A stretch of DNA of 64,000 nucleotides from an uncultured virus (IMG/VR IMGVR_UViG_3300028571_000012) (Duplodnaviria > Heunggongvirae > Uroviricota > Caudoviricetes): IMG/VR virus record IMGVR_UViG_3300028571_000012; one strand, given 5' to 3'. The position numbers were made by a program, and so were the translations under genes. The notes below the pieces were generated by a model. It had not been told where the DNA came from and searched no databases. It saw only the letters and a program-made list of their open reading frames with translations. This document shows positions 39,989-62,683 of this stretch, in pieces (position 1 is the first letter of the stretch; each line of letters opens with the position of its first letter).

Positions 39989-40313
39989 TGGTGGAGGTGT
40001 CGGGAGTTGAACCCGAGTCCACGATACAAACAATCTATAATCTACAACAATATCAAGCTTTTTTCGCCATGCTTGCCGGCTATGCACCTACGTTGTGCCC
40101 CAGAGTATAGTTTGGTGTACTCAACCTATTTTAGATTTGCCTAAAAAGCTATCCTCTGTCGTCGCCCACATCTTTTAGAGGAGTCAAAAAGTGGACGTAG
40201 CTTACGCAGCTAATGCAAGGTTATTTTCGCCTTTTGTTTTTCGCTTTTAAAGTCAAGCAGACTGTGTGTTGCAATAGGTGTGTTTCTTATCATGTCGAAA
40301 CCTTTTCACCCCC
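39989..40313 (-). ncRNA. ssrA: tmRNA, tag (A)GENNLALAA
   Basis: 5' GGGGGTGAAAAGGTTTCGAC, 3' GGGTTCAACTCCCGACACCTCCACCA with G3.U70; internal GGC GAA AAT AAC CTT GCA TTA GCT GCG TAA. Confidence 0.95.
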
Positions 40314-41392: not shown

Positions 41393-42475
41393 TTATGGTT
41401 CAATTTTCACTTGCTCCAATTCATAAAAAATCGCAACGGTGTCGTCAGTTTGTTTTTCGGACAATATATTAAAGCAATGCGCCTTGCGCCAATCATCATA
41501 TTGTTGTGTTATTGCATACGCTTGTTCTCGGCGAGTGTCATACGCACGCAATGAGTTTGCCCAGTCAATCATAGCATCGCGTTTTTGAATATAGCAATTA
41601 TATGCCTGCACCACTGTTTCAATTTCTGGGCGAATTCGCTCGGCAATCTCATAGTCAGTTGTATTGACAACATAATCATAAAAATCATTTGCACAGATAA
41701 AGCGTGGAGAAGCCAAAAACAAATCCATCACTGATTTTACATTGGAAATTCCGGCGGCAACTTTATGCAAATGGCAATAATGAGACGCCTTAATTTTCTT
41801 CAATGTTTGACCGTCAGGAGAATAGAGCACAACACCTTCTTTTCCAATCCAATTTTGCACATCCGAAATACATTCTTGCGTTGTGTTGTAGTTGTAGCGC
41901 GACGGACGACCGACGCACCACAATTTGGCAACGTCATCTAGACTTTGTTGTGATACGTATTGTGCAGTCTTATTAAAGATCATGCCTACCAAAGTTAGTG
42001 TCGGGACATTATGTTCACGCAGCACAATAATGCGCGTTGGACTTGTCCATTCCAGCAATACCGAATAGCCATTGTCTAAAAAATTATTGTCAAACACTTC
42101 AGGATACCGAATGACTAAACCGTCAATTTCATGGCCGTTGGTCAGCATCCGAGCATCGACCGTTCCTCGAGTACTCACAACAAGTTTTCCGTTGTGACGT
42201 GAAACAATAAGCAACGAGCCGTCAAGCTTATGAACAGCTTTTACAGGCCATGAATCTTCCCACGGTTGAAAGTTTGGCTGCTCTCCAAAGTTGGTAAATT
42301 TTCCAAAGCCTTGAGACACTACGGTGTTATCGGATTTGCGGACAATGCAAGAACGAAAGCGCGCATTGTCGTCAGTCCACTTTACCGACATATCTTTTGG
42401 TGTGATTAACCAACAGTCGTCACCAGCAACAGTGACATCTTTAAAATTAAATTGTTCTGTATCGGGAAGTTTCAT
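41393..42475 (-). CDS. RNA ligase, T4 Rnl1-like
   Basis: KFTNFGE, KLDGSL, EW.SP..IV, EGVV, KIK...Y. Confidence 0.85.
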   Translation of the reverse strand: MKLPDTEQFNFKDVTVAGDDCWLITPKDMSVKWTDDNARFRSCIVRKSDNTVVSQGFGKFTNFGEQPNFQPWEDSWPVKAVHKLDGSLLIVSRHNGKLVVSTRGTVDARMLTNGHEIDGLVIRYPEVFDNNFLDNGYSVLLEWTSPTRIIVLREHNVPTLTLVGMIFNKTAQYVSQQSLDDVAKLWCVGRPSRYNYNTTQECISDVQNWIGKEGVVLYSPDGQTLKKIKASHYCHLHKVAAGISNVKSVMDLFLASPRFICANDFYDYVVNTTDYEIAERIRPEIETVVQAYNCYIQKRDAMIDWANSLRAYDTRREQAYAITQQYDDWRKAHCFNILSEKQTDDTVAIFYELEQVKIEP

Positions 42476-49206: not shown

Positions 49207-49293
49207 TGGTGCGTAAGACAGGACTCGAACCTGCAAGCCTCGTAGGCGCGGAATTTTAAGTTCCGAGTGTATCATCAATTCCACCACTTACGC
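49207..49293 (-). tRNA. tRNA-Leu(TAA), long variable arm
   Basis: CGGAA-CT TAA AA-TTCCG, GGTTCGAGTCC, CCA. Confidence 0.9.
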
Positions 49294-50011
49294 ATTAGAA
49301 AATTTATCGGTTGGTAAAACAATTTACCTGTAGGGACCGAAAGCTCCTGTAAGCGACACCACCACAGTGCCAAATTATTTCATAATATTTGCCAATGATT
49401 TTTCAAATTCTTCCACTTTGGGAAGTCGATTTGGCCAATAAATATAATCCTTTTCTTCGTTTTCTTTTAATCGTGATAACAAAGGAAGAATGGCGGCATA
49501 CAAAGCATCTGCTTTCTTTTTTTCACTTTCTGCGTTTTGTACAATTTCCAACTCACTTTCGTTTACAGCGGAAAATCCAAAGTCAAAATCGTAGTCAATA
49601 TTTTTCATGTATTAATGTCTTACCTATAATATGGGCTATTGCGACGGTAAGGCGGTCGCCAATATTCGTTAGGAATGTATGTATAAGTTGTATGGCAAGT
49701 TGAAAATCCCGTCGAGTGAATTCCAGGATAATAATACGGATCATAAGAAATGGTACAGCTTGAACTTATAAGCGCAAGTGCGCAAAACAATGTGATGTGT
49801 TTCATGCTTTTGTTTTTTTAAGTTGTGCTTTCATTTGCGCAAGCAACTTTTTCAATTCGGGAAGCAGATATTTTGGATCAACGGTATCAAACGGAAGAAC
49901 GTGAAACGGTCCGCGCGCATTTGGCTGACCGTAGGTTTCCATTCTTTTGGTGTGAAAAGCAATTGATTGCTCCATTGATTGAATATCGCTTTTTAAGATT
50001 TGCTTGTTGTT

Positions 50012-50078
50012 CATGTTGTGGTGTTTCCTTACAGGAACATTCTACCATATTTTGCGGAGGATGTAAACATCTTTTTTC
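50012..50078 (-). promoter_or_regulatory. early promoter/leader cassette (repeat copy)
   Basis: GTTTACA..TATGGTAGAAT..CCTGTAAGGAAACACCACAACATG. Confidence 0.8.
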
Positions 50079-50597
50079 ATTATTTTGAATCTTTTGTTGA
50101 TAGAATAATTCCGTACCAATACAAACACACGCACAAATACCATACGCCTATTGACGAACTGAATGTAAAATATACAACCGTGCCAGAAATTACCAAGGAT
50201 AGTAACAATGAAATCCATCCTGGCCATTCCATATCAACTTTGTCTTTTGAAAATGCCGCCAACGCACAACCTATTGAAGCAAGCGACAAATATATAACAG
50301 AAGCAATGAATAAAGTGATATTTCCTGTTTGTGCATAAACACACATGCCAACAAGGCATAGAAAATTGATTATTGTCACCATATGATGTATTGTTTTACA
50401 GTTTAAATATTGCGTTGTATGTTGATAGTTGCTGTGGGTTTTGAAGATCGCGAACTGAGGCATCGTCAAATCCCCCAACGGCCATTAGAAGGCCGAGGCC
50501 AAGAATCGTGAGAAAGATAAACAACAGTATGTTTGGTTGGTCTTGCATGTCAATATTCTACCATATTTTGCACGGTTTGTAAACAACTTTTTGCTGT

Positions 50598-51212
50598 TTA
50601 TTGCGGCACTGTACCGTAACCAAGCCGAGCTGCTTCCTTTGGTGATAAAGTGGCATACCATGATTTTTTTTGAACTAGTAATCCTGGCTTTCCTGTATAT
50701 TGGCAAGTGTTTTTACTGAGATATTCCGCGAACGCAATCATACCTTGAACGGTTTCATCTCCTCCATCAATATAGATTCTTAAACAACCAAACTTTTCCT
50801 TGAATTGGCCTATTTTTATTGCAGGCGGATTTGTATAAACATACAACTGTTGCTTATGGAGGAAATTTTGAATTTTTCCTGTAAGCCGTCTTACTTTTTT
50901 CCAGAAAATGTTTTTTGGATTGCAGTGCAAGCTTATTTTTCTGTTAAACTTTTGTATCAAATCATTGACAAAATTCATGAATTTTCTATTAGGATTTTTA
51001 ACGGCGCGTGATGTGTTTTGAATATAGTCAACAAATGATCCGAATAAATGATCAACAATAGTTTCCCATCCTTTGGGACAATCGTTGGCGCACCTTAAAG
51101 GCAAAAGTTTACCATCTGTACCAGTGTCAAAAAGACTTGGATATTTTTCAAATAATACTTGCTCAAAATCTTTCTTTGCAATTCTTTTCTTTGCTTGTTT
51201 TACTGTTTGCAT
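50598..51212 (-). CDS. conserved phage hypothetical protein (Q.KEKFG.LR.Y family)
   Basis: C.KGW..I, QFKEKFGCLRIY, AEYLS..TC..TG.PG; likely start MQTVKQ. Confidence 0.6.
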   Translation of the reverse strand: MQTVKQAKKRIAKKDFEQVLFEKYPSLFDTGTDGKLLPLRCANDCPKGWETIVDHLFGSFVDYIQNTSRAVKNPNRKFMNFVNDLIQKFNRKISLHCNPKNIFWKKVRRLTGKIQNFLHKQQLYVYTNPPAIKIGQFKEKFGCLRIYIDGGDETVQGMIAFAEYLSKNTCQYTGKPGLLVQKKSWYATLSPKEAARLGYGTVPQ

Positions 51213-51225
51213 AATGATATGTATA

Positions 51226-51543
51226 TTAGAGTTTTGGAAGTGATGTCCATAATGTCGGCTCGCGCAATTCACATACGCACCATCCAGCATCTGGGTGCCA
51301 TGAACAGATGCTCGCCAAATGACCAAGACCGTGTTGGTTTGGCGGACAATAGACAATAACTTCCGTTCCGTCCTTGGGAGCAGTTTCAATAGGTTTCCAA
51401 CAATTGTCATCTTGAATTTGTACCATCGTCCTGCCATAATCTGGACTCCAGCCTACATGACCTAATGTATGTTGTGCATTTTTATTCATAATTTTTTTAT
51501 TGTTATGTATCATGTCTTCTGGTGCGATGGTCGGCTTCGACAT
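51226..51543 (-). CDS. DUF551-like phage protein
   Basis: WKPIETAPKDGT, PTLW..LP. Confidence 0.6.
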   Translation of the reverse strand: MSKPTIAPEDMIHNNKKIMNKNAQHTLGHVGWSPDYGRTMVQIQDDNCWKPIETAPKDGTEVIVYCPPNQHGLGHLASICSWHPDAGWCVCELREPTLWTSLPKL

Positions 51544-51852
51544 AGCCGGGCAATTCGTTCAAAGAAAAAAGCCAGTCGGCATTTTTGAGCGGACAACGCT
51601 CTGGGACGATTCCTTGCTTCCACTCATTTACGACAAATGTTGAATAGTCAGTGTCATATTGCGCGTTCAGTTGCTGGGATAGTCCGCAGTATTTGTGCGC
51701 GTAGAACGGGCAGGTGCTGCAACTTGTAATGGAGAAGCTAATAGGACGGTCAGACTTAACAGGCGGGGCGGTATTAGTAAATGTTACAGTGTTTCGTTAC
51801 AGTTTATTGTACCATATTTTACGGGCAATGTAAACAAAAAGCGAAATATCAA

Positions 51853-52911
51853 CTATTTGTTCATATCATAGTTTTTGTTAATTACCTTGAATGAATTGGC
51901 AACATATTGCTTTGTCAGCACAATGTCATCAACAGAATGAGACAAACAATATGCACCATGATTGATTACAACACCTTCAAAAGCTTTGCCATCAATTTTC
52001 TTAAGACCAGTGGAATATTTGTCAATCAACGTTTGAGTCAGCACAACATTTTCTTCCAAGATTGGAACGTGAGGCAGTGACAGTGCATTTGCAACAATTG
52101 GAAAATAAAATGCATCACCTTTGCGTGCATATTTTCTTTCTTTGATGCGATACACACTGAAAATTGCCAATCCCGGATCGTCTTTTGAATGTGGATTTTC
52201 AGCAAATGCCTGAATGCCTTGACCATAAGATTCACCACGAATTGCCAATGAAACGCCGTGCTCTTTGCAATACGCGGTGAGCTTTTCACGAATGCCGTAT
52301 TTTTGGACATGAGCAGTGTATTTGTTATGAGCGTCATCTTTAAATTCAAGAGTTCGGCCGCATACGCCAAAGGTGTCAGATTCAATGTTGTAGTATGCAG
52401 TCCAAGATTGACCGTCAATTTTCAACGTGACATCTACAATTTCACCAAATGGTAGTGCACTTACCATATTTTCCCATCGCTCTTCATCAGTTTTAGGAAT
52501 GCCAAAAGGAAGCAAACCTTTAGCAGAAAGATCCTGCGGCAGTGGTGGTTCATAGTGAGTGATGCCTAAGGCATCGGACACATCACGACCTTCATCTTCA
52601 GGTTGAACACAATCGCCGTATTTCAGCATAATAGAATCCACTTGCTCAGGTTGTACAACAATACCTTCGCTCCATTCCCCGCGAAGCTTTACAGCTTTGA
52701 TGCGGCCTGGAGAATATTTGCGGTAGCCTTCGGCCCATTCAGCATCTTCAGGAAGAACTGAGTCAGGTTGAATGTAGATTACAAGATCACCTTCACGATG
52801 AAGGCCTCGTTCGGTTACACATTGATAGCCTAAAATTTTGACAAGATCAAGACGATCTGCATTTGGGTGAGAGACTACCGATTTAATTTTTTCAACTGAT
52901 GCGTTTTTCAT
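51853..52911 (-). CDS. RNA ligase, DRB0094/Rnl5 family
   Basis: N-terminal OB (HPNADRL, KLRG..SEG), PKTDEER, KIDGQS.T, GE..G.GIQ.N, EGVV, SFKVIN. Confidence 0.88.
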   Translation of the reverse strand: MKNASVEKIKSVVSHPNADRLDLVKILGYQCVTERGLHREGDLVIYIQPDSVLPEDAEWAEGYRKYSPGRIKAVKLRGEWSEGIVVQPEQVDSIMLKYGDCVQPEDEGRDVSDALGITHYEPPLPQDLSAKGLLPFGIPKTDEERWENMVSALPFGEIVDVTLKIDGQSWTAYYNIESDTFGVCGRTLEFKDDAHNKYTAHVQKYGIREKLTAYCKEHGVSLAIRGESYGQGIQAFAENPHSKDDPGLAIFSVYRIKERKYARKGDAFYFPIVANALSLPHVPILEENVVLTQTLIDKYSTGLKKIDGKAFEGVVINHGAYCLSHSVDDIVLTKQYVANSFKVINKNYDMNK

Positions 52912-53221
52912 AATGTAATTAGTTTATTCCAGCAATTTTCAATCTTGCGATTCCATTTTCATCCCAGTTTATCAGCTCGACGAGACCAATATTTCCATCT
53001 ACGGAAATTTCCGTGTATTAGGCGATTTTCATTTTTGATTGCTTGGGATAACTTTTCTCTCGTAGTCATTGACGCGATTCTATTAAAGTTCATTTTTTCG
53101 ACATGCATTTTTGGATGCACTCTTTTTCTTATTGGTAAAATATTTTGTAGGAGGCGCAATCTTATGGCGCACCAACGACCTAAGAGCAATTGGAGAATAA
53201 TCAAATGTGTTTTTAGTTGTC

Positions 53222-53296
53222 ATAATGTGGTGTTTCCTTACAGGACTATTCCACTATAAAATGCACCGTTTGTAAACAACTTTTTTCAACAAAATG
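53222..53296 (-). promoter_or_regulatory. early promoter/leader cassette (repeat copy)
   Basis: Near-identical to 26461-26535. Confidence 0.75.
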
Positions 53297-53371
53297 AAAA
53301 AGATTCAACCTATACAGGATAAGGGAAGCATCCACAATTACACATTGGAATTGACAATTGATTGAAAAGAA

Positions 53372-53459
53372 TGGCGGATGAAGTAGGTCCTGCCCCCAAA
53401 GCTCTTTCGAGCTCATACTGATTAGCAATCAGTTTCAGCGCTTCGCTGATTCATCATCC
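53372..53459 (-). tRNA. tRNA-Ser(GCT)
   Basis: ACTGA-TT GCT AA-TCAGT, long variable arm, CCA; atypical T loop. Confidence 0.8.
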
Positions 53460-53465
53460 ATAAAA

Positions 53466-53542
53466 TGGTACACCGAGTGCGACTCGAACGCACAATCGCC
53501 AGAGCTTAAATCTGGAGGCTTTACCAATTAGCCCACCGGTGC
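53466..53542 (-). tRNA. tRNA-Leu(TAA), short variable loop
   Basis: CCAGA-TT TAA GC-TCTGG, TTCGAGT, CCA. Confidence 0.85.
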
Positions 53543-53545
53543 ATT

Positions 53546-53637
53546 TGGCGGAACGTGCAGGATTCGAACCTGCGACACTCTTTGAAGGAGTGTTCTGCAC
53601 TTTCCAAGTGCAGTCTTCGTCCGTCCAGTCACGTTCC
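53546..53637 (-). tRNA. tRNA-Ser(GGA)
   Basis: TGCAC-TT GGA AA-GTGCA, long variable arm, CCA. Confidence 0.88.
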
Positions 53638-53645
53638 AAGGAAAG

Positions 53646-53717
53646 TCCGCGGGCTTGGATTTGCACCAAGTTGGTCAGATTCACAGTCTGAGGCCTTACT
53701 ACATAGGCTACCCTCGG
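53646..53717 (-). tRNA. tRNA-His(GTG), atypical
   Basis: TCAGA-CT GTG AA-TCTGA; no encoded CCA, lacks G-1/C73. Confidence 0.65.
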
Positions 53718-53794
53718 GAAAATTTGCAAGCATTTCACTTGCGCGCACACTCATTATCCTGGTGAGAAATCCTAAGATTGGCAGTGTGTGTACC

Positions 53795-54523
53795 TTATCC
53801 TAATTGAATTTTTTTGCGTTTGCGTGTAGGACCGCCACTCTCTCTTTTAAAAGAAGCATTGTCCATACCATGAGACAGCACTTTATATTTGTTTTGCACT
53901 TCAACAGTTTGCAGTTCAGGTGCTTGCAGTGAATTAAAAATTTGTGTATAGACAACCACTGGATCCACCGGAAATTTCATGTCTTTCAAACATGGATTTA
54001 AAACCCAGCAGTTGTGATCATCAGAATGTTCGACACCGCGATAATTCAATCCAAACAGCGGAACATCAAGATGTGCATGCAATGCCATCAACTTTTCAGG
54101 TTTGCAATTTGCTTCAAAATTGTTACACACTGCGGTTGAATAGTTGGAAAGGTACTTGAATCTTTTTCCAAGTCTATCATTCTTATAAGCATAAGCTTCA
54201 GCGAATGATACAACAGCGTGTGTTTCATGAATGAGAAAATATGGATGGCCACCAACACAATAAAATGAAATTGGGGCGTTTGAAGTCCAACCATTTTGCA
54301 AACGATAAGTTTTTGAAGGATTAAGTTCACGTATCACAATGGCGCAAAGCTTAAGAAATTGTGATGGATCATTAACATCGTATCCGCCGATTGTGTATCT
54401 TCCAGGAAGCGTTTTATCAACCGTTGGAATCTTTGATGTTTTGCGGTTGTAGACAATTTTAGAATCTTGACCATACTTGGTGCAAAAATCATAATAGTCT
54501 GAAAAGTTTGAATTGATGTACAT
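53795..54523 (-). CDS. hypothetical protein inside RNA array
   Basis: 242-aa ORF; I.S.F.DYYD N-terminus, K...HG.D..SF C-terminus. Confidence 0.65.
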   Translation of the reverse strand: MYINSNFSDYYDFCTKYGQDSKIVYNRKTSKIPTVDKTLPGRYTIGGYDVNDPSQFLKLCAIVIRELNPSKTYRLQNGWTSNAPISFYCVGGHPYFLIHETHAVVSFAEAYAYKNDRLGKRFKYLSNYSTAVCNNFEANCKPEKLMALHAHLDVPLFGLNYRGVEHSDDHNCWVLNPCLKDMKFPVDPVVVYTQIFNSLQAPELQTVEVQNKYKVLSHGMDNASFKRESGGPTRKRKKIQLG

Positions 54524-54542
54524 AATATAAAGTTTGGTAAAA

Positions 54543-54617
54543 TGGTAGGGGCGACAGGAATTGAACCTGCTTACCTTCGATTATGAGTCGAACGCTAGAC
54601 CAATTAGCTACACCCCT
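54543..54617 (-). tRNA. tRNA with CAT anticodon (Ile2 or Met)
   Basis: TTCGA-CT CAT AA-TCGAA, CCA. Confidence 0.85.
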
Positions 54618-54729
54618 TTTTATTTTGCCAATATTGTTTTTTTATTTCGGCAAGTTTTTTCCTTACATGGTTATTCTACTATAAAACAAGGCAGTTGTAA
54701 ACAACTTTTTTCACTTTTTTTCGATAAAA

Positions 54730-54807
54730 TGGCACACCACGTGAGGATCGAACTCACTAAGACGAAAGATTTGGAGTCCTTCCGACTTGCCCACAGTCTG
54801 ATGGTGC
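54730..54807 (-). tRNA. tRNA-Trp(CCA)
   Basis: AAGGA-CT CCA AA-TCTTT, G73, CCA. Confidence 0.85.
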
Positions 54808-54815
54808 GTTGAAAA

Positions 54816-54890
54816 TGGTCCACACTGACGTGTCCGAATCGTCTTGTTTCGCTCTTCAGGCGAACGCTTTACCATATAAGCTAAGTGTGG
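54816..54890 (-). tRNA. tRNA-Phe(GAA)
   Basis: TTCGC-CT GAA GA-GCGAA, CCA. Confidence 0.85.
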
Positions 54891-54898
54891 ATATAAAA

Positions 54899-54987
54899 TG
54901 GAGGGAGCTAGAGGAATCGAACCCCTACCCGCTACAAACGCATAGCCCAGAGTTCAAATCTGGTTTGTCACCTTGACGCTAGCTCCC
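54899..54987 (-). tRNA. tRNA-Ser(TGA)
   Basis: CCAGA-TT TGA AC-TCTGG, long variable arm, CCA. Confidence 0.85.
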
Positions 54988-54994
54988 TAAAAAT

Positions 54995-55043
54995 TGGAAC
55001 AGGCGGCCGGGATCCCAACCCTTGGTTATCCTTGCGGACCTGC
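54995..55043 (-). ncRNA. 49-nt tRNA-like mini RNA ending in CCA
   Basis: GCAGGT/GCCTGT terminal stem plus T-CCA; no anticodon arm. Confidence 0.45.
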
Positions 55044-55054
55044 ATTGTATAAAA

Positions 55055-55086
55055 TGGTACCTTCGGTGTGATTCGAACACACCGTT
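55055..55086 (-). pseudogene. 3' half of split tRNA (T arm, acceptor strand, CCA)
   Basis: GTGTG-TTCGAAT-CACAC-CGAAGGT-A-CCA; pairs 7/7 with GCCTTCG at 55949-55943. Confidence 0.8.
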
Positions 55087-55091
55087 TTAAT

Positions 55092-55806
55092 TTAAATTAT
55101 GGAATAAAGATCTTCGACATCTTCCAATTTTATCTGTCCCGAAATAAATTTTGTGAAATTATTAATTCCATTTTCATTTCTGATTAGAAATATTTTTAAA
55201 TTTGGATTGTCTTTTTTTACTAATCTATATTTGTTTTTATCACGATCTGATAACCAACCTTTAACTTCGATATATGTATGATCGGAAACTTTAAAATCCG
55301 GTGTATAGCACCTATGCTCATCAAACTTAAGTCTTTCCCGAGATATGGTATACCCAAGTTCGATCAATTTTTTCACCTACTTGGGCTTCCCAAGTTCCTT
55401 GAACTTTAAGACCATTGGAAAGAGTATACCATTTTATATGTGGTGATCGTTCTAAATATTCAATTCGGGCCTTAGATAATTTTCGTTTTGATTCCACAGA
55501 ATGACCGTTTAATGATGCCCCAAATTTTTTTCCAACCAATGTTGGTCTTTCTAAACGAGGATCATCATGTTTCGTTATTCCTGCAGACCATCCCATCATT
55601 TTTCTAGTTTCAGATGAATAATTTTTTCTCATGTTTTTCCTGTTTTCTAAATATCCAGGATCTTTATTCTTTAAAAGAAGCGCATCGCTATTTCTTTTCC
55701 TAATAACAGGACAACTGTTGGATGATTTAGAACATATATTTTTACCAACTTTAATAGTCTTAAAAAGTGCTAAGTTGCCACAACCATGTTCACATAAAAT
55801 GTCCAT
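55092..55806 (-). CDS. PD-(D/E)xK homing-type endonuclease with NUMOD3-like region, split by a +1 frameshift
   Basis: HS.ESKRKLS, QGTWE in one frame; YTPDF..YIEVKGW in the next; join at A6 run 55368-55373; late promoter 55811-55818. Confidence 0.75.
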
Positions 55807-55834
55807 ATTTTATTTATAATAGAATCTAAATTAA

Positions 55835-55916
55835 TACCCCGACCGAGACTTGAACTCGGACGTTCTTCCGAACAACAGTTTCTAAGACTATCATGTCTGC
55901 ATTCCATCATCGGGGC
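55835..55916 (-). tRNA. tRNA-Leu(TAG), nested in split tRNA, no encoded CCA
   Basis: GCCCCGA/TCGGGGT acceptor, ATAGT-CT TAG AA-ACTGT, long variable arm. Confidence 0.85.
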
Positions 55917-55919
55917 TTT

Positions 55920-55949
55920 ACGGCGCCTCTACCGTTGGGCTACGAAGGC
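55920..55949 (-). pseudogene. 5' half of split tRNA (Leu-type D arm)
   Basis: GCCTTCG-TA-GCCCAACGGTAGAGGCG then truncation. Confidence 0.8.
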
Positions 55950-55951
55950 AA

Positions 55952-56026
55952 TGGCGCACACAGAAGGACTCGAACCTCCAACATTCTGTTTCGAAGACAG
56001 ACGCTCTTCCATTGAGCTATGCGTGC
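55952..56026 (-). tRNA. tRNA-Arg(TCG)
   Basis: TCTGT-CT TCG AA-ACAGA, CCA. Confidence 0.92.
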
Positions 56027-56036
56027 ATGGAAAATG

Positions 56037-56498
56037 TTATACTTTTGCGCCAACCGCAAGTGCGGCAGCATAAGCTTTAAATTCCGCAGAAGTTTTACCT
56101 TTAACAAAGACACCTTCTGAATCATAACTACGATATTCTGACCATGGCAATGTTCCATCGCTTGTGTTAATAAGACCCGATGGAAGTTTAATGAAAACCT
56201 TTGTATCGCCTCGCATGTATGCAACGCATCCGCTACCGCAATAAATTACATCGTCATTAAGTTGACCATTAATGGATGTGGCATTTTTATCGGTTGCTTT
56301 AAGACCACCGTCAATCATTGGCTTACCAATTCGATCTTCGTTTGAGGCCAAAAAGTTATCATAATTATGTGCTCCTTTTTTAGTCCAAGGAGTATTGCCT
56401 GCGGCAAAAGGAAATTCACCATTTGCTTCAACAATTTGTCCTCCCAAAATTGCTTTTGCGGCAATATACGTTTCATCGTTTGTTTTAATAATATTCAT
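56037..56498 (-). CDS. late protein, probable internal head protein
   Basis: TATAAATA 56508-56515; 22 nt around the start identical to that of 46830-48353; leader ending IVE. Confidence 0.6.
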   Translation of the reverse strand: MNIIKTNDETYIAAKAILGGQIVEANGEFPFAAGNTPWTKKGAHNYDNFLASNEDRIGKPMIDGGLKATDKNATSINGQLNDDVIYCGSGCVAYMRGDTKVFIKLPSGLINTSDGTLPWSEYRSYDSEGVFVKGKTSAEFKAYAAALAVGAKV

Positions 56499-56533
56499 AT
56501 GTATTGTTATTTATACATTTTTTGTTTTGAAAA

Positions 56534-56609
56534 TGGCGCACATGGCGAGTACTGATCTCGCGTCCGAAACATTGACAATGTTCCCATCTGCCATTGAAAG
56601 TACATGTGC
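56534..56609 (-). tRNA. tRNA-Asp(GTC)
   Basis: GAACA-TT GTC AA-TGTTT, G73, CCA. Confidence 0.85.
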
Positions 56610-56613
56610 GTAT

Positions 56614-56640
56614 TGGTGCCTCTGGGAGAATTTGAATCTA
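56614..56640 (-). pseudogene. 3' remnant of a tRNA
   Basis: AGA-TTCAAAT-TCTCC-CAGAGGC-A-CCA without an upstream body. Confidence 0.6.
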
Positions 56641-56656
56641 GATCTTATCAAATAAA

Positions 56657-56734
56657 TGGTGCAGGTGAGAGGATTCGAACCTCCATCGCTCCATTACGGT
56701 GCTACTGCTTAGAAGACAGTTCCGATACACCTGC
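56657..56734 (-). tRNA. D-arm-less tRNA-Arg(TCT)-like RNA
   Basis: GCAGGTG/CACCTGC, 7-nt linker instead of D arm, ACTGT-CT TCT AA-GCAGT, long variable region, canonical T arm, CCA. Confidence 0.7.
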
Positions 56735-57604
56735 TGAAAATTTTCTTTTAAAACATTTAAGTTCATAAAACTCAGGTAAATATCTTTTCATCCACTTTGA
56801 AACATTCTGTGGTTTTTTACCAAGCAGCTTTGAAACTTTATTCACCCACCCAAACTTCGAAAAATCTATACCCGAATTTAAAACCAAGTCTTTATATGGT
56901 TCCCATCTAATGGCTTCTCTTAATAGTATTTTTTCTCCGGGCGCCAATTTTTTTTCTTTAGCTGCTTTGAGTCTTAATATTTCAAAATATTTTTCATAAG
57001 ATGGTTGTTTTCCGATTTTTATTACAGAATCAATGAGTTCATGGTTGTACACAGAAGTATAATGTAATTCAATTAACGTCCATCCGGCTGAGGTGATTAA
57101 ATCATGTCGTTTTTGATAATATTCGGCGAGTGTCCCATCCTTATTATAATGTTGATTTCCATTTACCTCTATTCCAAATTTTAAATCGGGAAAACATATA
57201 TCTATTGAAAAATTTCTATCTTCCAGTGGGCTCCATTCTGAAACAAATGATATCCCCTTTGAGTTAAGATAGGTTTTAAGATATTCACAAGGAACGGATA
57301 TAAATTTAGAATTATTCTTCCAAGGGTGTTTATCCGGATTCTTCTTAAGAAAATCTTTTCTCTTTATTGAGAGATTATTTTTTCTTTCTGCGGAAAAAAC
57401 AATTGGAAATTTCTTACATTCGACACATCGTTTTCCTCTACTATTAAACAGTATTCCACAACGTAGACATGTTTTTTCTTTCCTCTGTTTTCTGTTTGGA
57501 TTTGATTTGCACCACCGTATGTGGTCTCCAATAGATCCTCTAGTTTCATTCGAAATTTCAATACTACAAAATGAACATTTCCTAATTCGAATCTCATTTT
57601 GCAT
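56702..57604 (-). CDS. homing-type endonuclease: Zn-ribbon N-terminus plus Vsr/DUF559-like nuclease
   Basis: CxxC pairs, S.P.E, FSIDI.FP...GIEVNGNQHY, R...I...GW; late promoter 57610-57617. Confidence 0.8.
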   Translation of the reverse strand: MQNEIRIRKCSFCSIEISNETRGSIGDHIRWCKSNPNRKQRKEKTCLRCGILFNSRGKRCVECKKFPIVFSAERKNNLSIKRKDFLKKNPDKHPWKNNSKFISVPCEYLKTYLNSKGISFVSEWSPLEDRNFSIDICFPDLKFGIEVNGNQHYNKDGTLAEYYQKRHDLITSAGWTLIELHYTSVYNHELIDSVIKIGKQPSYEKYFEILRLKAAKEKKLAPGEKILLREAIRWEPYKDLVLNSGIDFSKFGWVNKVSKLLGKKPQNVSKWMKRYLPEFYELKCFKRKFSAGVSELSSKQ

Positions 57605-57632
57605 AAAGTTATTTATACAAGATTCGAATTAG
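57582..57632 (-). promoter_or_regulatory. 13-bp hairpin enclosing late promoter and start codon
   Basis: CTAATTCGAATCT (57582-57594) / AGATTCGAATTAG (57620-57632). Confidence 0.75.
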
Positions 57633-57653
57633 AACGAACGAGGCATAAGAAAA

Positions 57654-57728
57654 TGGTACGCAATGACAGATTTGAACTGCCGACAATCTGAATGTAAATC
57701 AGGGGCTCTACCGCTGAGCTAATTGCGC
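57654..57728 (-). tRNA. tRNA-Val(TAC)
   Basis: CTGA-TT TAC AT-TCAG, CCA. Confidence 0.92.
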
Positions 57729-57736
57729 ATTAAAAA

Positions 57737-57810
57737 TGGTGGGGGATTTGTGAGTTGAACACAAACATCTCGAGTCAAAGTCGAGAGCACTACCATTATG
57801 CTAATCCCCT
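57737..57810 (-). tRNA. tRNA-Gln(TTG)
   Basis: CTCGA-CT TTG AC-TCGAG, CCA. Confidence 0.9.
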
Positions 57811-57819
57811 ATTGAAAAA

Positions 57820-57894
57820 TGGTGAGTCGCCCAGTAATCGAAACTGGATCTCTACGTTCGTAGCGTAGCGTGCTGTCCATTCTACTAACAACTC
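57820..57894 (-). tRNA. tRNA-Arg(ACG)
   Basis: CTACG-CT ACG AA-CGTAG, CCA. Confidence 0.9.
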
Positions 57895-57900
57895 TTAAAT

Positions 57901-57977
57901 TGGTCCTCGATGTTGGGCACGATCCAACGACCTCACGCTTATCAAGCGTGCGCTCTACCAGGCTGAGCTAATCGAGG
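57901..57977 (-). tRNA. tRNA-Ile(GAT)
   Basis: CACGC-TT GAT AA-GCGTG, CCA. Confidence 0.92.
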
Positions 57978-58059
57978 TTTGAAAATTGACCAATTGCCTA
58001 ATCCGCTGCACACTACTTTATCAGGTATAGCCGCTTGCAATCAGGCAATTGGAAATGAA

Positions 58060-58213
58060 TTTGCGGCTCAGGTCGCTATATCGTGCAATGTGTTCCCAAC
58101 CGAAATTGATAACGTCTCGAAAGACTCGATTTCTACCATATGCCGACTGGCGTCTTCCTATGGCTACCTTGCACAAACGTCTTAGTTGACGAATACCCCT
58201 CAATGACCGCAAA
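58060..58213 (-). ncRNA. unidentified multi-stem RNA
   Basis: Nested stems GCGG/CCGC, GTGCAA/TTGCAC, CCATA/TATGG, GTCT-TTCG-AGAC. Confidence 0.55.
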
Positions 58214-58215
58214 AG

Positions 58216-58292
58216 TGGTCGGGACGGCCAGATTCGAACTGACGACATCATGCTCCCAAAGCATGCGCTCTACCAGGCTGAGCTACGTCCCG
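58216..58292 (-). tRNA. tRNA-Pro(TGG)
   Basis: CATGC-TT TGG GA-GCATG, CCA. Confidence 0.95.
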
Positions 58293-58510
58293 TAAAAAAA
58301 TTTATGATTCTCGCCAACCCGAAGATTGTTGCACGCCATCACAGGAATTCCTCCGACGCACACGAGATAACGGATTCAAGGACCCGGGACACCCTTGTTG
58401 ATTGACATTTCAACTTATGGCTTACGATTTTTACCTGACAGCAGGCTTCTTTCATGTGGAGTACAACATGCCGTGCTGTACCATTAGTTCGTACTTATGA
58501 CGCAGAAAAT

Positions 58511-58599
58511 TGGCGGCCCGTTAACATCAAATGGATTTGGAATCCACATGTTCCGCTCATCACTTCACGACGGGCCAAGCGTGAAGCTCAATTGAGCGC
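58511..58599 (-). ncRNA. kink-turn/pseudoknot RNA ending in CCA
   Basis: CGCTCA-ATT-GA/GA-TGAGCG k-turn pattern; loop GGCCCGT pairs with 3' ACGGGCC-G-CCA. Confidence 0.6.
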
Positions 58600-58607
58600 A
58601 AGAAAAA

Positions 58608-58679
58608 CTTTCATGGCAGGCCATTCTCCTGCACTTTCCTTTTTACAACAAAGGGTCCTATTATTTAGACGACATGAAA
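58608..58679 (-). tRNA. degenerate tRNA-Thr(TGT)-like cloverleaf
   Basis: TTTCATG/CATGAAA, CCTTT-GT TGT AA-AAAGG, T loop AGAATGG, no CCA. Confidence 0.5.
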
Positions 58680-58682
58680 AAT

Positions 58683-58773
58683 TGGCTCCCATCCTAGGTA
58701 ACGATCCTAGCCCCCGAATTTCACGGTTCAGTGATTAACAGTCACGCGCGTTCGCCTGCTCGCGTCGATGGGA
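58683..58773 (-). tRNA. tRNA-Asn(GTT) with long variable arm
   Basis: GTGA-CT GTT AA-TCAC, G73, CCA. Confidence 0.8.
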
Positions 58774-58782
58774 TTTGAAAAT

Positions 58783-58857
58783 TGGTGCGCCTCCACGGTA
58801 CTGCCCCGTGTTAGTCTGGTTAAAAGCCAGGTGCTTCACTGTTAAAGCTTGAAGCGC
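58783..58857 (-). tRNA. tRNA-Lys(TTT)
   Basis: CTGG-CT TTT AA-CCAG, CCA; T loop GGCAGTA. Confidence 0.85.
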
Positions 58858-58867
58858 ATATGAAAAT

Positions 58868-58943
58868 TGGAGCCCCCTATCTGATTTGAACAGATAACCT
58901 GCTCATTACAAATGAGCTGCTCTGCCAGTTGAGCTAAGGAGGC
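58868..58943 (-). tRNA. tRNA-Thr(TGT)
   Basis: GCTCA-TT TGT AA-TGAGC, CCA. Confidence 0.95.
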
Positions 58944-58952
58944 ATTAGAAAT

Positions 58953-59027
58953 TGGAGCGCCGAGTCAGAATCGAACTGACTTATAACAGGGTTGCAATCT
59001 GTCGGGTGGCCATTCCCCATTCGGCGC
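58953..59027 (-). tRNA. tRNA-Cys(GCA)
   Basis: ACAG-A TT GCA AC C-CTGT, U73, CCA. Confidence 0.88.
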
Positions 59028-59198
59028 ATAAAGAATTCCAACACGCGCTGAAGTTTGAAAGGTAGAAATTTGTTCAAGTATCCGGTCTTGTCGAGATATT
59101 GTTTTGTTTTAGGTCTTAAAGACTTACTTCCGCACTCGCAGTCACCCTTTCTTTTGGTCTCGTAAATTACAACAGCTAGACCGTCTGTGTTGAAAAAT

Positions 59199-59273
59199 TG
59201 GTACCACAAGAGAATTTTGAAATCTCGACCTGATCCGTATGAAGAATCTGCTCTGCCTCTGAGCTATTGTGGT
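59199..59273 (-). tRNA. tRNA-Met(CAT), elongator-type
   Basis: GATTC-TT CAT AC-GGATC, CCA. Confidence 0.85.
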
Positions 59274-59280
59274 ATAAAAG

Positions 59281-59356
59281 TGGTGGAGGTTGCCGGGCTC
59301 GAACCGACCACACTCTGCTTGCAAAGCAGATGCTCTACCAGATGAGCTAAACCCCC
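59281..59356 (-). tRNA. tRNA-Ala(TGC)
   Basis: G3.U70, TCTGC-TT TGC AA-GCAGA, CCA. Confidence 0.95.
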
Positions 59357-59390
59357 GTTGTTGTTCGGTGTGAACAACTTGTTTTGAAAT

Positions 59391-59464
59391 TGGTGCGTCA
59401 TGTGGTAGTCGAAACCACGCTTTCTGAGTGGAAGTCAGATGTGCTGCCGTAACACTTATGACGC
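59391..59464 (-). tRNA. tRNA-Gly(TCC)
   Basis: TCTGA-CT TCC AC-TCAGA, CCA. Confidence 0.9.
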
Positions 59465-59473
59465 GAAAATCGA

Positions 59474-59573
59474 ATAATACAGACAGAATTGAACTGTCAC
59501 TGCGGCATGTTTGCCTATCCTATCGGACAAGAAACCCTTTGCTTGGGGCGTGCTGCCATTACACTATGTATTA
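59474..59573 (-). ncRNA. tRNA-like RNA with extra arms
   Basis: TAATACA/TGTATTA acceptor, D arm, T arm GACAG-TTCAATT-CTGTC, three small hairpins between. Confidence 0.55.
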
Positions 59574-59577
59574 AAAA

Positions 59578-59650
59578 TGGTGCGGCGGAAGGCAATTGAG
59601 TCCTTCATATTTCACATTACGAGTAAAATATAATCCCGTCGTTCACGCGC
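59578..59650 (-). ncRNA. aberrant tRNA-like RNA (GTA in loop), CCA end
   Basis: 9-bp stem ATATTTTAC/GTGAAATAT, GAAGG/CCTTC arm, ACCA. Confidence 0.5.
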
Positions 59651-59660
59651 ATTGTAAAAT

Positions 59661-59737
59661 TGGTGATGCATACGGGGAACGATCCCGTAGTCTCTTGAGT
59701 GAAAGTCAAGTGTGTTAGCCCGTTACACTAATGCATC
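59661..59737 (-). tRNA. tRNA-Glu(TTC)
   Basis: CTTGA-CT TTC AC-TCAAG, CCA. Confidence 0.9.
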
Positions 59738-59746
59738 ATAGAAAAT

Positions 59747-59831
59747 TGGTGCGGCCGTGTGGTTTCGATCCACTCCCCCGAAGAGATAAGATTTACAGTC
59801 TTACTGCTGGAGCCACCAGCTTTCCGTCCGC
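59747..59831 (-). tRNA. tRNA-Tyr(GTA)
   Basis: TAAGA-CT GTA AA-TCTTA, variable arm, CCA. Confidence 0.85.
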
Positions 59832-59938
59832 TTTGAAAATTTAAACAGCTTTAACAAGCATACAACCTCAGCAATCCGAAGACTGGAACTTAATCCAAAC
59901 TGAGAGCATCGCTACTGTTCCTGAGTGCGGTTGCAAAT

Positions 59939-60013
59939 TGGTCCTCCTGGTTGGGAATGATCCAACGACCCGGCCCTTATAAAGAACCCCCTCTACCACT
60001 GAGCTACAGGAGG
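59939..60013 (-). tRNA. tRNA-Ile(TAT)
   Basis: GGTTC-TT TAT AA-GGGCC, body resembles Ile(GAT), CCA. Confidence 0.85.
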
Positions 60014-60342
60014 TGACATTATTAAAAATGTGAGAGGCGTCCATTCGTGACATGAACTGATCTTTCAATCAAGGTGGTCTTACGCTTTCGCGGGTTTACT
60101 TCAACCTCTCGTTGTATTGTGAAAGTTTTAGTAACGGTATCACTATTATATTCCGTTAATGTATTATACATTGCACAATAAGTGTGTTTAGTGTATAATG
60201 TATGAATCATTGTGAAAAGGGACACACGGGCTCATAATATTCGGATTATATGAGCGAGCCCGTGATTTACTACCATGCTCGATATGACACCGACTTGTCA
60301 ATACCGTGGGTTCATGCACCGCATGCTGCTTCCGTGTGAAAT

Positions 60343-60419
60343 TGGTTGCGAGTGCCGGAATCGAACCGACCTCCTAAGCTTATGAAACTTGGCTGGAACC
60401 ACCTCCAGTCTAACTCGCG
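60343..60419 (-). tRNA. initiator-type tRNA-fMet(CAT)
   Basis: C1.A72 mismatch (CGCGAGT/ACTCGCA), CAT anticodon; lacks the three G-C anticodon-stem pairs. Confidence 0.8.
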
Positions 60420-60442
60420 ATTTGAAATACTTGTGAGTGACA

Positions 60443-60515
60443 AAAAGTAAATTGGATTTGCACCAATTCCTCCGGTCACAGCTGGACCGGCACACATCTA
60501 TTATGCTATTACCTT
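60443..60515 (-). ncRNA. tRNA-like cloverleaf with non-canonical anticodon loop
   Basis: AAGGTAA/TTACTTT, CCGGTC-CAGCTGT-GACCGG, ATTGG-TGCAAAT-CCAAT; no CCA. Confidence 0.5.
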
Positions 60516-60600
60516 CACGATGATCCGATCCGTTGCAGCGGGGCTTCACCATCATGTTCACTCACTTGCACGAACAGCCTGCAAGCCGTCCGAAAATTTG

Positions 60601-60690
60601 AGGGCAATATTGGGAATCTAACCCATACTCTACATCTGAAACAACAGACACGCTTAGTTTATTTCAAGTTTGCGCTAGAGTTTATTACCC
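60601..60690 (-). ncRNA. tRNA-like RNA: acceptor plus T arm with branched third stem
   Basis: GGGTAAT/ATTGCCC, TGGG-TTAGATT-CCCA, ACTCTA/TAGAGT. Confidence 0.5.
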
Positions 60691-60749
60691 ATTAAAATTG
60701 GTTTAAATTTAAAGTATTATCCTTTAATTACCAATGCATATTTGAAAAT

Positions 60750-60821
60750 TAGTGGAGTGACTGGGAATCGAACCCAGAGGATACCTTTCGGTTTTTAGAC
60801 CTCCATGCCAGAGATCACCCA
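60750..60821 (-). ncRNA. tmRNA-TLD-like mini RNA
   Basis: Acceptor with G3.U70 and A73, canonical T arm CTGGG-TTCGATT-CCCAG, no D stem or anticodon loop. Confidence 0.55.
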
Positions 60822-61002
60822 TTGAAAATTTCGCTTGTAGGGTCATTCTCCCCTCCCTCTCCTGCTTTCTTTTGCCGCGCCTTCGGGCTACTCTCAGTCA
60901 GGAGTATGCAATTAGCACCTCAAACGTGAATGTGTCGGCGATTACAACATAATCTTTAAAACTCATGAAGTAGAGTTACCGTTCGAACACACAATGTGGT
61001 TC

Positions 61003-61104
61003 TTCAAGTTGATTGGATTAACCAATCTTTTGCGGACTTGATGGCCACATTCTTTTTCAAGTTGATTGGATTAACCAATCTTTTGCGGACTTGATGGCCA
61101 CATT
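61003..61104. repeat. 53-bp-period direct repeat, 2 copies, each with internal hairpins
   Basis: TTCAAGTTGATTGGATTAACCAATCTTTTGCGGACTTGATGGCCACATT at 61003 and 61056. Confidence 0.95.
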
Positions 61105-61247
61105 TTTTTTCAATCAATTGTCAACGCATCATCTTGTGATCCATGCCGTTCAACCACGGTCGTTTTGAGTTTCTCGCACTCATTCAGCGTTTCGTTAGAG
61201 TTATTATACCACATTTTCAGTGGGATGTAAACATCTTTTGTAAATCT

Positions 61248-61447
61248 TTTTTACGTTGGCAGAAGGTTTTGAATCTTCTTTGTTGCCGCCGTATGTGAAT
61301 ATTCTACCATAAAAAGCAGCAGTTGTAAACAACTTTTTACGATTTTTTTTACGTTGGCAGAAGGTTTTGAATCTTCTTTGTTGCCGCCGTATGTGAATAT
61401 TCTACCATAAAAAGCAGCAGTTGTAAACAACTTTTTACGATTTTTTT
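61248..61447 (-). repeat. 98-bp tandem duplication, each copy an early promoter
   Basis: ACGTTGGCAGAAGG... at 61253 and 61351; each has GTTTACA..TATGGTAGAAT. Confidence 0.95.
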
Positions 61448-61475
61448 CATTTTTATTTTTCCCTTATGCCATAAC

Positions 61476-61509
61476 AAAAAGACCCTCGGCTTGGTGGCGG
61501 AGAGTCTTT
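61476..61509 (-). terminator. intrinsic terminator (candidate attenuator)
   Basis: AAAGACTCTC/GAGGGTCTTT stem followed by TTGTT. Confidence 0.7.
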
Positions 61510-61540
61510 CAAAAACTTTTTTGTCGGATTGTTCTCTGCC

Positions 61541-61675
61541 TTATTTTTTTCTAGGATTAAAGCTTTGTGTTCCTGTGGCAATATACGTCTCACTGCCAAA
61601 TGACCACGCACGCGCAACACACAATACGTTGCGTGACGGTGTGTTAGGTTTGACGGAGAGAGGTTTCATATTCAT
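61541..61675 (-). CDS. 44-aa candidate leader peptide
   Basis: MNMKPLSVKPNTPSRNVLCVARAWSFGSETYIATGTQSFNPRKK; late promoter 61680-61687; terminator follows. Confidence 0.5.
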   Translation of the reverse strand: MNMKPLSVKPNTPSRNVLCVARAWSFGSETYIATGTQSFNPRKK

Positions 61676-61716
61676 AAGTTATTTATACAATTTTATGCTT
61701 CAAGAATGAATTATTT

Positions 61717-62337
61717 TTAAATAATTGCAGGCACTTGCTCTCTTGGATTGCCAACAAAAACATCCCATTCAACACGATGGCGCACACTGTCAGACAATGC
61801 CGAAAATTCAACATCGGACAATATTTTTGGAACAACACTTGATCCAAATGCATTGGAATATGGAAATTTTGATCCTTTACGCAAATTGCATTTTTTACAT
61901 GACAGCACAATGTTTGAATCACAATTGACACCACCTTTGCTTCTTGGCACCACATGATCTCGTGTTGCAACCGAATAAGGAATTTCCTTCAAACAATATT
62001 GGCACTTACGATCATAAATGTTGTACAACTGACGCAACTTTATTGTTTTGCGCCTGCGCTTCATAAATCTTTTAGAATTGAAATAGCCAGGAATTACAAC
62101 AATTGTAGGAACTGCATACGCCACGTCTGCTGTACGCATACACGGATAATCATCTGGCAATCCTGTATCATTGCTTATCCATGAGCTCCAATCATGAATG
62201 TTGCCATGCGGATCATATGCTTTTACAGCACCTACCACAAGATTGCGCATTGCCGATCTTGCGTTAAAAAAACCAAGAGGTTCAAACCCACCAGAAAGGA
62301 CTAGTGTTGTTTTTGTTGTTGGCGTGATAGGTTTCAT
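61717..62337 (-). CDS. HNH endonuclease (McrA-like)
   Basis: CQYC, TRDHVVPRSKGG, N.V.SC..CN..KG. Confidence 0.9.
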   Translation of the reverse strand: MKPITPTTKTTLVLSGGFEPLGFFNARSAMRNLVVGAVKAYDPHGNIHDWSSWISNDTGLPDDYPCMRTADVAYAVPTIVVIPGYFNSKRFMKRRRKTIKLRQLYNIYDRKCQYCLKEIPYSVATRDHVVPRSKGGVNCDSNIVLSCKKCNLRKGSKFPYSNAFGSSVVPKILSDVEFSALSDSVRHRVEWDVFVGNPREQVPAII

Positions 62338-62683
62338 ATTATATTGTTGCATTCAAAACTGTAGAAAGACTTAATCGCATATTAAAGTCACATTCTGTAA
62401 TAGGTGTATCAAGTGTCACGCCATCATTTTGAGACCAACCGTTTGCATTTAAAATTTTCACTTTTAAATTTTTATGTGTCGTCCATTCATGTGCGGTCTT
62501 TTTAGGTCCAAAAATATTGTCCCAATTGTCACGTCCTTGTTTGGACAATGTTTTTGAGGCAATCGAATCTCCTGTAATATCATTTTTTGCTGACATAATC
62601 TTTATTGTGTGAATATTATACCTTACTTTAAGGACATTGTAAACAACTGTTTTCAAATCTTACGATATTTATAAATATATATT

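Follow-up and report, generated by a model that had tools for sequence, protein, structure and literature searches.

In the 64,000-nt stretch of DNA analyzed here (the window), a small late gene was found to end shortly before an intrinsic terminator, and the 8 nt that directly follow its stop codon are predicted to pair with the 5' arm of that terminator. The best reading of the site is a ribosome-dependent conditional terminator, to which we assign a probability of about 0.4. An earlier note on this DNA had proposed a translation-sensing attenuator that gates late transcription into a tRNA array; all of the elements that it listed were present as written on the (-) strand. In the direction of transcription, the site comprised an HNH gene, TATAAATA, the small ORF, GGCAGAGA, an A/U-rich spacer, and the terminator.

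The window is part of the genome of an uncultured freshwater phage of the T4-like (Kyanoviridae-like) type. Annotation of its ORFs revealed gp32-like, gp59-like, baseplate, tail-tube, and tape-measure genes, and its G+C content was 38%. Judged by the gp32-like protein, the nearest cultured relatives were Methylophilales phage Melnitz, at 56% identity, and cyanophages, at 53%. The DNA runs containing the stretch came from lake and freshwater metagenomes, and none of the listed runs with the stretch was recorded as RNA. No gp55, gp33, or gp45 gene was found among the 45 ORFs scanned in the window, which covers only part of the genome. A blastn search with positions 60900-62400 and a tblastn search with the small ORF against the phage collection returned no matches; the nearest record, G001, contained only copies of the promoter, without this locus. 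The HNH endonuclease gene, recognized by Pfam and PHROG searches, occupied positions 61717..62352 (-), directly upstream of the site. A promoter-like match (TTTACA-17-TATAAT) at 62615..62643 (-) represents a putative early promoter, a transcript from which would cross an 85/105-aa ORF, the HNH gene, and the small ORF and would reach the same terminator.

The T4-type late promoter box TATAAATA was located at 61680..61687 (-), 4 nt before the first ATG (61675) of the small ORF; the late promoter described in the earlier note has the same box-to-ATG layout as bona fide late genes. This box occurred 18 times in the window, against 6.06 occurrences expected, and none of 100 shuffles reached 18. In 10 of these cases, the nearest downstream ATG was 4–9 nt away and opened an ORF of 44–811 aa; the ORFs behind the boxes included baseplate, tail, tail-tube, tail-fibre, HNH, and unassigned genes. 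Both the enrichment of the box and its placement before virion genes are as expected of T4-type, gp55-dependent late promoters. Close-set boxes were observed, for example, at 710, 3164, 29566, 41114, 48370, 55818, 56515, 57617, and 61687 (-), as well as at 62670 (+). According to the accessible part of a T4 transcription account, the late box of T4 lies at positions -13 to -6 (PMC1524935). With this spacing, boxes located 4–9 nt from the ATG imply that late mRNAs begin at the AUG or within a few bases of it; the late mRNAs of this phage, including that of the small ORF, are therefore probably leaderless or nearly so. Motifs resembling a Shine–Dalgarno (SD) sequence preceded 3 of 47 gene starts in the window, and thus a small ORF without a ribosome-binding site is normal for this phage. 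The start context of the small ORF, TGTATAAATAACTTATG, was nearly identical to that of the 300-aa gene at 57604.

The small ORF itself (61541..61675, (-)) was delimited on the basis of its open frame, its late promoter, and its protein homologs. It consisted of 44 codons and a TAA stop (61543-61541) and used 18 of the 20 amino acids, as had been noted earlier, with D and H absent; no regulatory codon runs were present in it. Since Met3 corresponds to the protein start in five of the 11 family members, translation may cover 42 codons. Variants carrying the ORF were detected in L003, L004 (identical to L014), L005, and L016, with proteins of 44, 42, and 46 aa and, in L005, a frameshift after which the frame ends at a TGA approximately 60 nt before the usual stop. 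The broken frame of L005 is either a counter-example or a sequencing error; if the sequence is correct, ribosomes would be unable to mask the element after the stop in this variant. The frame was open in four of the five DNA variants at 49–61% pairwise nucleotide identity (39–51% divergence). The probability that a shuffled ORF body stays open was 0.077, which argues that the frame is under selection. The pN/pS values of the ORF pairs were 0.35/0.52, 0.42/0.57, and 0.46/0.69 (a ratio of about 0.6–0.7).

Further homologs were identified by protein search (P0001, P0002) and by profile search (P0004–P0006, P0008–P0010), and all of them were 42–47 aa in length. Across the 11 sequences, C19, W24, and N40 were invariant and F39 nearly so. 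Searches of the small ORF against Pfam and PHROGs matched no families, and the AlphaFold model of the peptide was a beta-hairpin of low confidence (pLDDT 60.5). Three further matches (P0003, P0007, P0011) were rejected as repeat-driven, these being giant repetitive proteins with 7–16 short matching stretches each and unrelated domains. An antisense ORF of 72 aa was also discarded: it had no promoter, start context, or Pfam/PHROG match, whereas the sense ORF has a canonical late box. Nucleotide identity in the first two thirds of the ORF (61590-61670) was 37–60%, compared with about 70–97% in the flanks (the HNH gene on one side and the terminator/promoter region on the other); this island of divergence may reflect rapid evolution or the exchange of a short segment. 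The sequence evidence marks the small ORF as a genuine late gene belonging to a conserved family of small proteins of 42–47 aa. Its translation is likely, given the late-gene arrangement of promoter and ATG, the rarity of SD motifs, and the open frame in four of five variants. Since it encodes a conserved peptide, neither its conservation nor its translation needs a regulatory explanation, and the idea of an ORF that serves merely as a sensor was not borne out.

An intrinsic terminator was identified at 61476..61509 (-) by folding and scanning; it was formed by a hairpin (61509-61478) and a T-run (61480-61476), after which GTTAT follows. The hairpin consisted of 11 pairs, a 1x1 mismatch, 2 pairs, and a 6-nt loop, followed by TTTTTGTTAT, and its free energy, when folded alone, was -13.7 kcal/mol. 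It thus shows the two hallmarks of intrinsic terminators, a hairpin rich in G+C and a U-tract immediately behind it. A simple terminator scan missed it owing to the internal mismatch; a separate scan and the folds recovered it. The 31 nt between the stop codon and the hairpin place a short ORF just before an intrinsic terminator, as in attenuators. Starting at the first base after the TAA, GGCAGAGA (61533..61540, (-)) forms the 5' strand of the candidate antiterminator, as judged from pairing and folds. Its 3' strand, also predicted by folding, is TCTCCGCC (61496..61503, (-)), which contains the upper 5' arm of the terminator and the first base of the loop. The pairing of these two segments at 7 of 8 positions was confirmed, with one A.C mismatch. 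In the minimum free energy (MFE) fold of the nascent RNA, the loop of the antiterminator enclosed an inner hairpin of an A-tract and a U-tract (CAAAAAAGUUUUUG; 61510..61523, (-)). The terminator and the pairing with its upstream partner were mutually exclusive in silico.

In 10000 shuffles of the 31-nt spacer, the 8-mer that follows the stop reached at least 7/8 matches in a fraction of 0.0021, and any 8-mer of the spacer did so in a fraction of 0.041. Among the seven terminator-like hairpins of the window, the shuffle fraction was smallest for this one (0.021). In the two cleanest of the other terminators (29615, 19830), none of the arm bases paired with upstream sequence; upstream pairing of the 5' arm was also seen for two hairpins of doubtful status (24045, 19413), with shuffle fractions of 0.14 and 0.07, respectively. 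The fold of the whole leader was not unusual (z = -1.53). A copy of TCTCCGTC in codons 5–8 was present in the lineage of the window only and absent from relatives, and the window and its relatives lacked a conserved region 1:2, the anti-antiterminator or pause hairpin. An Rfam search over 60400-61800 with E values up to 5 gave only weak matches at chance level and no T-box, riboswitch, or known leader. The alternative pairing looks like more than chance.

The comparative set comprised the window, L003, L004, L005, and L016, a small set of closely related variants that do not represent independent tests. Scanning of the metagenomes yielded L016 as a new variant and L014 as a duplicate of L004; L015, a chance match in an unrelated GC-rich contig, was dropped. 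In L011, the downstream anchor was present, with a different upstream arrangement that contained tRNA genes and no small ORF. Scans of viral contigs with the 5' end of the ORF, with an element-free terminator pattern, and with an alignment of the ENK subfamily (used because the first alignment was too diverse) recovered the same four contigs or nothing. Further relatives were found among the contigs of four DNA runs (X10 record 2, X3 record 8, and X7 record 17); in the last of these, 212 unlike letters replaced positions 61340-61649. Identity of the stretch among the five variants was 73–90%. In L003, additional genes encoding 104 and 143 aa were found between the HNH gene and the small ORF (L003:4680-5521), each behind a copy of the same late-promoter segment of approximately 45 nt, and the small ORF was still the last gene before the terminator. 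These insertions look like cassette insertion by recombination at promoter repeats.

The earlier note had suggested checking the conservation of the spacing between the stop and the antiterminator in relatives. The equivalent of GGCAGAGA occupied positions +1 to +8 after the stop in all five variants, and this adjacency was maintained despite indels in the spacer and loop and the variable length of the C-terminal tail. The antiterminator helix was present in the MFE fold of the RNA preceding the 3' arm in five of five variants, also when the folding started from the AUG, in which case the pair probabilities were 0.5–1.0. The helix was short, with 7–8 pairs, and its free energy was -7.5 kcal/mol in the window, L003, and L016, the three variants with the internal A.C mismatch, -8.7 kcal/mol in L004, and -13.7 kcal/mol in L005. 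Among 2000 shuffles of the upstream 37–40 nt per variant, the fraction giving a nascent fold at least as stable was 0.0375 for the window, 0.0015 for L003, 0.022 for L004, and 0.0005 for both L005 and L016. The segment from the stop to the T-run folded at -14.3 to -23.4 kcal/mol in the five variants; in the three mismatch variants, the terminator-containing MFE fold had -14.3 to -18.4 kcal/mol compared with -7.5 kcal/mol for the antiterminator. In L005 and L016, the two states were nearly isoenergetic. The estimated barrier on the direct path from the antiterminator to the terminator state was 11.6–13.9 kcal/mol in the five variants, so that the pairing, once formed, should outlast the passage of the polymerase.

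The 8-nt element carried two substitutions among the five variants, both of which preserved pairing. The C-to-U change in L004 resulted in a U.G pair, with one terminal pair lost; in L005, an A-to-C change in the element and a C-to-G change in the arm produced a perfect 8/8 helix. In the alignment, 90% of the antiterminator cells were paired, compared with 35–55% for a slid partner. Covariation of the antiterminator was not significant in the five variants, since 85 of 500 column shuffles reached the observed score; the terminator, which is itself beyond doubt, scored no better (92.3% of cells paired, 121 of 500 shuffles). The terminator was kept in all five variants and had one covarying pair (U-A in L004 and G-C in L005); the covarying arm position of the antiterminator also repairs the terminator itself. 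The inner hairpin was predicted in five of five variants, and its CAAA...UUUG ends were invariant and hence yielded no covariation.

A mechanism consistent with these folds can be outlined for the conditional terminator. Once the 5' arm of the terminator has been transcribed, GGCAGAGA would pair with its upper part; the 3' arm would be shut out by this pairing, and RNA polymerase would read on. With a ribosome at the end of the ORF, the 8 nt after the stop would be covered, the terminator would form, and the transcript would end. A ribosome covers roughly 12 nt beyond the A-site codon, and such coverage would span the 8-nt element; the proposed masking follows from this general footprint. Termination would thus signal that translation of the ORF keeps pace with transcription, and lagging, stalled, or absent ribosomes would lead to read-through into the early promoters, the leader region, and the first tRNA block. 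On a leaderless mRNA, ribosome loading could begin upon emergence of the 5' end, and close coupling would thereby be favored. The naked nascent RNA is predicted by the folding model to form the antiterminator and often to fail to terminate. We infer the kinetic competition in vivo, as well as any physiological trigger. The features of attenuators found in silico were the ORF–terminator layout, an exclusive antiterminator that forms first, and an element within reach of a terminating ribosome; clustered regulatory codons, a region 1:2, and promoterless downstream genes were absent. The attenuator proposed in the earlier note has therefore survived with respect to its exclusive folds, the stop-adjacent partner in five of five variants, the nascent fold, and the late-gene layout, and has lost ground with respect to codon runs, sole gating, and the frame of L005.

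The downstream sequence speaks against a strict gating of the tRNA array as proposed in the earlier note. Directly after the terminator, a promoter scan and a motif count revealed three tandem sigma-70-like early promoters (61203..61447, (-)), two with TTTACA-17-TAGAAT and one with TTTACA-17-TATAAT; all had the TG of an extended -10 element and lay in 98-nt repeats. The extended early-promoter motif occurred nine times in the window against 0 expected, including positions 54712 and 53287 inside the tRNA array, and late boxes were also located inside the array (57617, 56515, 55818). The array, as predicted by ARAGORN, comprised 24 tRNA genes interspersed with ORFs downstream of the site (49207..60516, (-)), the first downstream tRNA ending at 60516. 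Same-strand tRNA genes followed the site in the window, L003, L004, and L005; Melnitz had four dispersed tRNA genes and no comparable array. The downstream genes thus have promoters of their own, and the site does not gate the tRNA array alone. Because promoters are situated both between the terminator and the tRNAs and inside the array, the site cannot be the main control of tRNA supply; at most, it controls the share of upstream early and late transcription that is added to the first tRNA block.

Several other observations were made in this region. The number of tandem promoter units varied, with three in the window, one unit more in L002, and one fewer in L003, L004, L005, and L016; X3 and X10 contigs skipped 99–104 nt at the tandem promoters. 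Each 98-nt unit encoded a hairpin (GGCA..GAAG..CUUC.UGCC) just past the predicted start site. Between the conserved leader and the first tRNA, two 53-nt tandem repeats were present at 61000-61105 (-), each with the perfect palindrome GATTGGTTAATCCAATC, which may be a protein-binding site; the copy number of this repeat also varied in relatives (skips of 51–54 nt). The 680 nt that separate the promoters from the first called tRNA contained, on the (-) strand, the T-arm-like sequences GGGTTCGATTCCC (~60763-60775) and GGGTTAGATTCCC (~60611-60623). No RNA was called in these two regions by ARAGORN or Rfam, and the only Rfam match nearby was a weak one to permuted tmRNA (60683-60777, E = 2.7); the two sequences may represent degenerate or unusual tRNA-like RNAs. 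ARAGORN also predicted a one-piece tmRNA gene at 39989-40313 (-) with the tag GENNLALAA; in L003, the tRNA genes were immediately followed by a predicted tmRNA (L003:8284-8614) that carried another tag, AQQQKALIT.

A role in countering attacks of the host on translation is increasingly attributed to the tRNA arrays of phages, and we know of no account of how their expression is tuned during infection. The neighbors in and around the array included two RNA ligases, a polynucleotide-kinase-like gene, and phosphoesterase genes; their positions on the (-) strand (41393-42475, 51853-52911, 35578-35982, 30241-30759, and 39039-39791) correspond to the two ligases, the polynucleotide-kinase-like ATPase, and two phosphoesterases. 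These genes resemble a set for RNA/tRNA repair of the T4 Pnk/Rnl type and would be the only tie between the site and tRNA loss or defense. The extended proposal is that a lytic phage would carry its own sensor of translation: a failure of late translation, caused by starvation or by the cleavage or depletion of tRNAs by host defenses, would let late transcription extend into the tRNA block, and this feedback would bring about an on-demand resupply of tRNAs, with the ORF possibly acting as an arrest peptide (W...QSFNP); we regard this as quite unlikely.

The evidence was weighed against other explanations of the site. It is possible, and nearly as likely as a conditional terminator, that an ordinary small late gene is followed here by a constitutive terminator that also closes the upstream early operon ahead of the promoters of the tRNA region, the 8-nt complementarity being incidental or ancestral. 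Membership in a conserved family of 42–47 aa and a canonical late promoter are what such a gene would have, and transcription units are normally delimited in this way, by a terminator with promoters behind it. At 73–90% identity among the variants, conservation of the element is largely expected; the covariation of the antiterminator was not significant, its helix was weak in three of five variants, and the broken frame is tolerated in L005. In addition, the site was picked out of 64 kb, which inflates chance estimates made for a single site. However, the shuffle fractions of 0.0005–0.04 in the five variants and of 0.0021 right after the stop speak against an incidental match, as do the retention of pairing by both substitutions in the element and the absence of such a partner from the two cleanest other terminators of the window. 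The dominance of the pairing in the nascent fold of all five variants, with a barrier of 12–14 kcal/mol to the terminator, also argues against it.

The same structural evidence would equally fit a functional pairing that is independent of translation, that is, a fixed leaky termination or control by an RNA-binding protein or RNA processing, by which the tRNA region would receive a constant fraction of the early and late transcripts from upstream. This explanation gains from L005, in which the strongest antiterminator (8/8, -13.7 kcal/mol) is joined to a broken ORF, and from the early transcripts that would also reach the site from the promoter at 62643. It does not need the element to start at the first base after the stop, which it did in five of five variants despite indels in the spacer, and a weaker hairpin would be a simpler way to a fixed leak; we consider this explanation unlikely. 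A cis-acting arrest peptide appears very unlikely. In this case, W24 and the Q-S-F-N-P motif, located 3–5 codons ahead of the stop, would arrest the ribosome in response to a particular condition, with the leading edge of the ribosome just short of GGCAGAGA, so that the antiterminator would form and transcription would continue. Conservation of the C-terminal half (W24, F39, N40, P41) beside the diverged N-terminal two thirds of the ORF is consistent with arrest, and with Pro41 in the P site, the general footprint would end at approximately the stop codon and leave the element free, an argument from geometry only. Nevertheless, the same conservation fits a trans-acting small protein, no tool matched a known arrest motif, L004 has Q in place of P41, and the model of the peptide was the low-confidence beta-hairpin (pLDDT 60.5).

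If the conditional terminator is real, T4-like phages would gain their first example of an attenuator in which termination follows the progress of ribosomes on a leaderless late mRNA, and tRNA supply would be tied to the state of translation. For the related phage Melnitz, a glutamine riboswitch, as given in the accessible part of that report, suggests control at the RNA level (PMC9004378); a true attenuator here would extend such control in phages to classical attenuation. If the site is a plain gene end, the gains are a new family of small proteins and late genes that are probably leaderless. None of the papers listed in a limited literature search described an attenuator before a phage tRNA cluster.

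In leader-peptide attenuators of the trp, his, and pheA type, a ribosome at the stop masks a segment of the leader, and the terminator forms. One example, going by the portion of the source at hand, is pheL (PMC3082878). The present site resembles these attenuators in having a translated short ORF before an intrinsic terminator and a stop-adjacent segment that pairs with the 5' arm of the terminator, and its proposed mode of action is the logic of the trp leader without region 1. It differs from them in that regulatory codon runs are absent, the ORF is long (42–47 codons) and encodes a conserved peptide family, neither a conserved region 1 nor a pause hairpin is present, and the mRNA, transcribed from a phage late promoter, is probably leaderless. 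Moreover, promoters and tRNA genes lie downstream instead of a promoterless biosynthetic operon.

According to the accessible part of the source on T4 and T4-like tRNA regions, early promoters precede the tRNA genes (PMC1524935), and the region studied here is similar in having early promoters before phage tRNA genes as well as TATAAATA late promoters, which the same excerpt places at -13 to -6 in T4. The late boxes of this phage, however, lie only 4–9 nt from the start codons, and a candidate conditional terminator occurs at the entry to the tRNA cluster, where that part of the T4 account includes no attenuator or conditional terminator (PMC1524935). The riboregulators defined computationally by PASIFIC (PMC5314783), as outlined in the available text, share with the site an intrinsic terminator and an alternative structure, each of which excludes the other; unlike in them, the antiterminator here has only 7–8 pairs and follows a coding ORF rather than lying in a 5' UTR. 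The closest functional analogs are the attenuators that sense general inhibition of translation, vmlR (PMC9226507), msrD (10.1101/2021.11.29.470318), and lmrC (PMC8546547), in which, as far as the consulted portions of these reports go, the terminator is disabled by stalling on a short ORF and not by the lack of a single amino acid. These systems are bacterial, respond to antibiotics, and control ABC-F or other resistance genes, whereas the candidate described here would act on the late transcript of a lytic phage, with tRNAs downstream.
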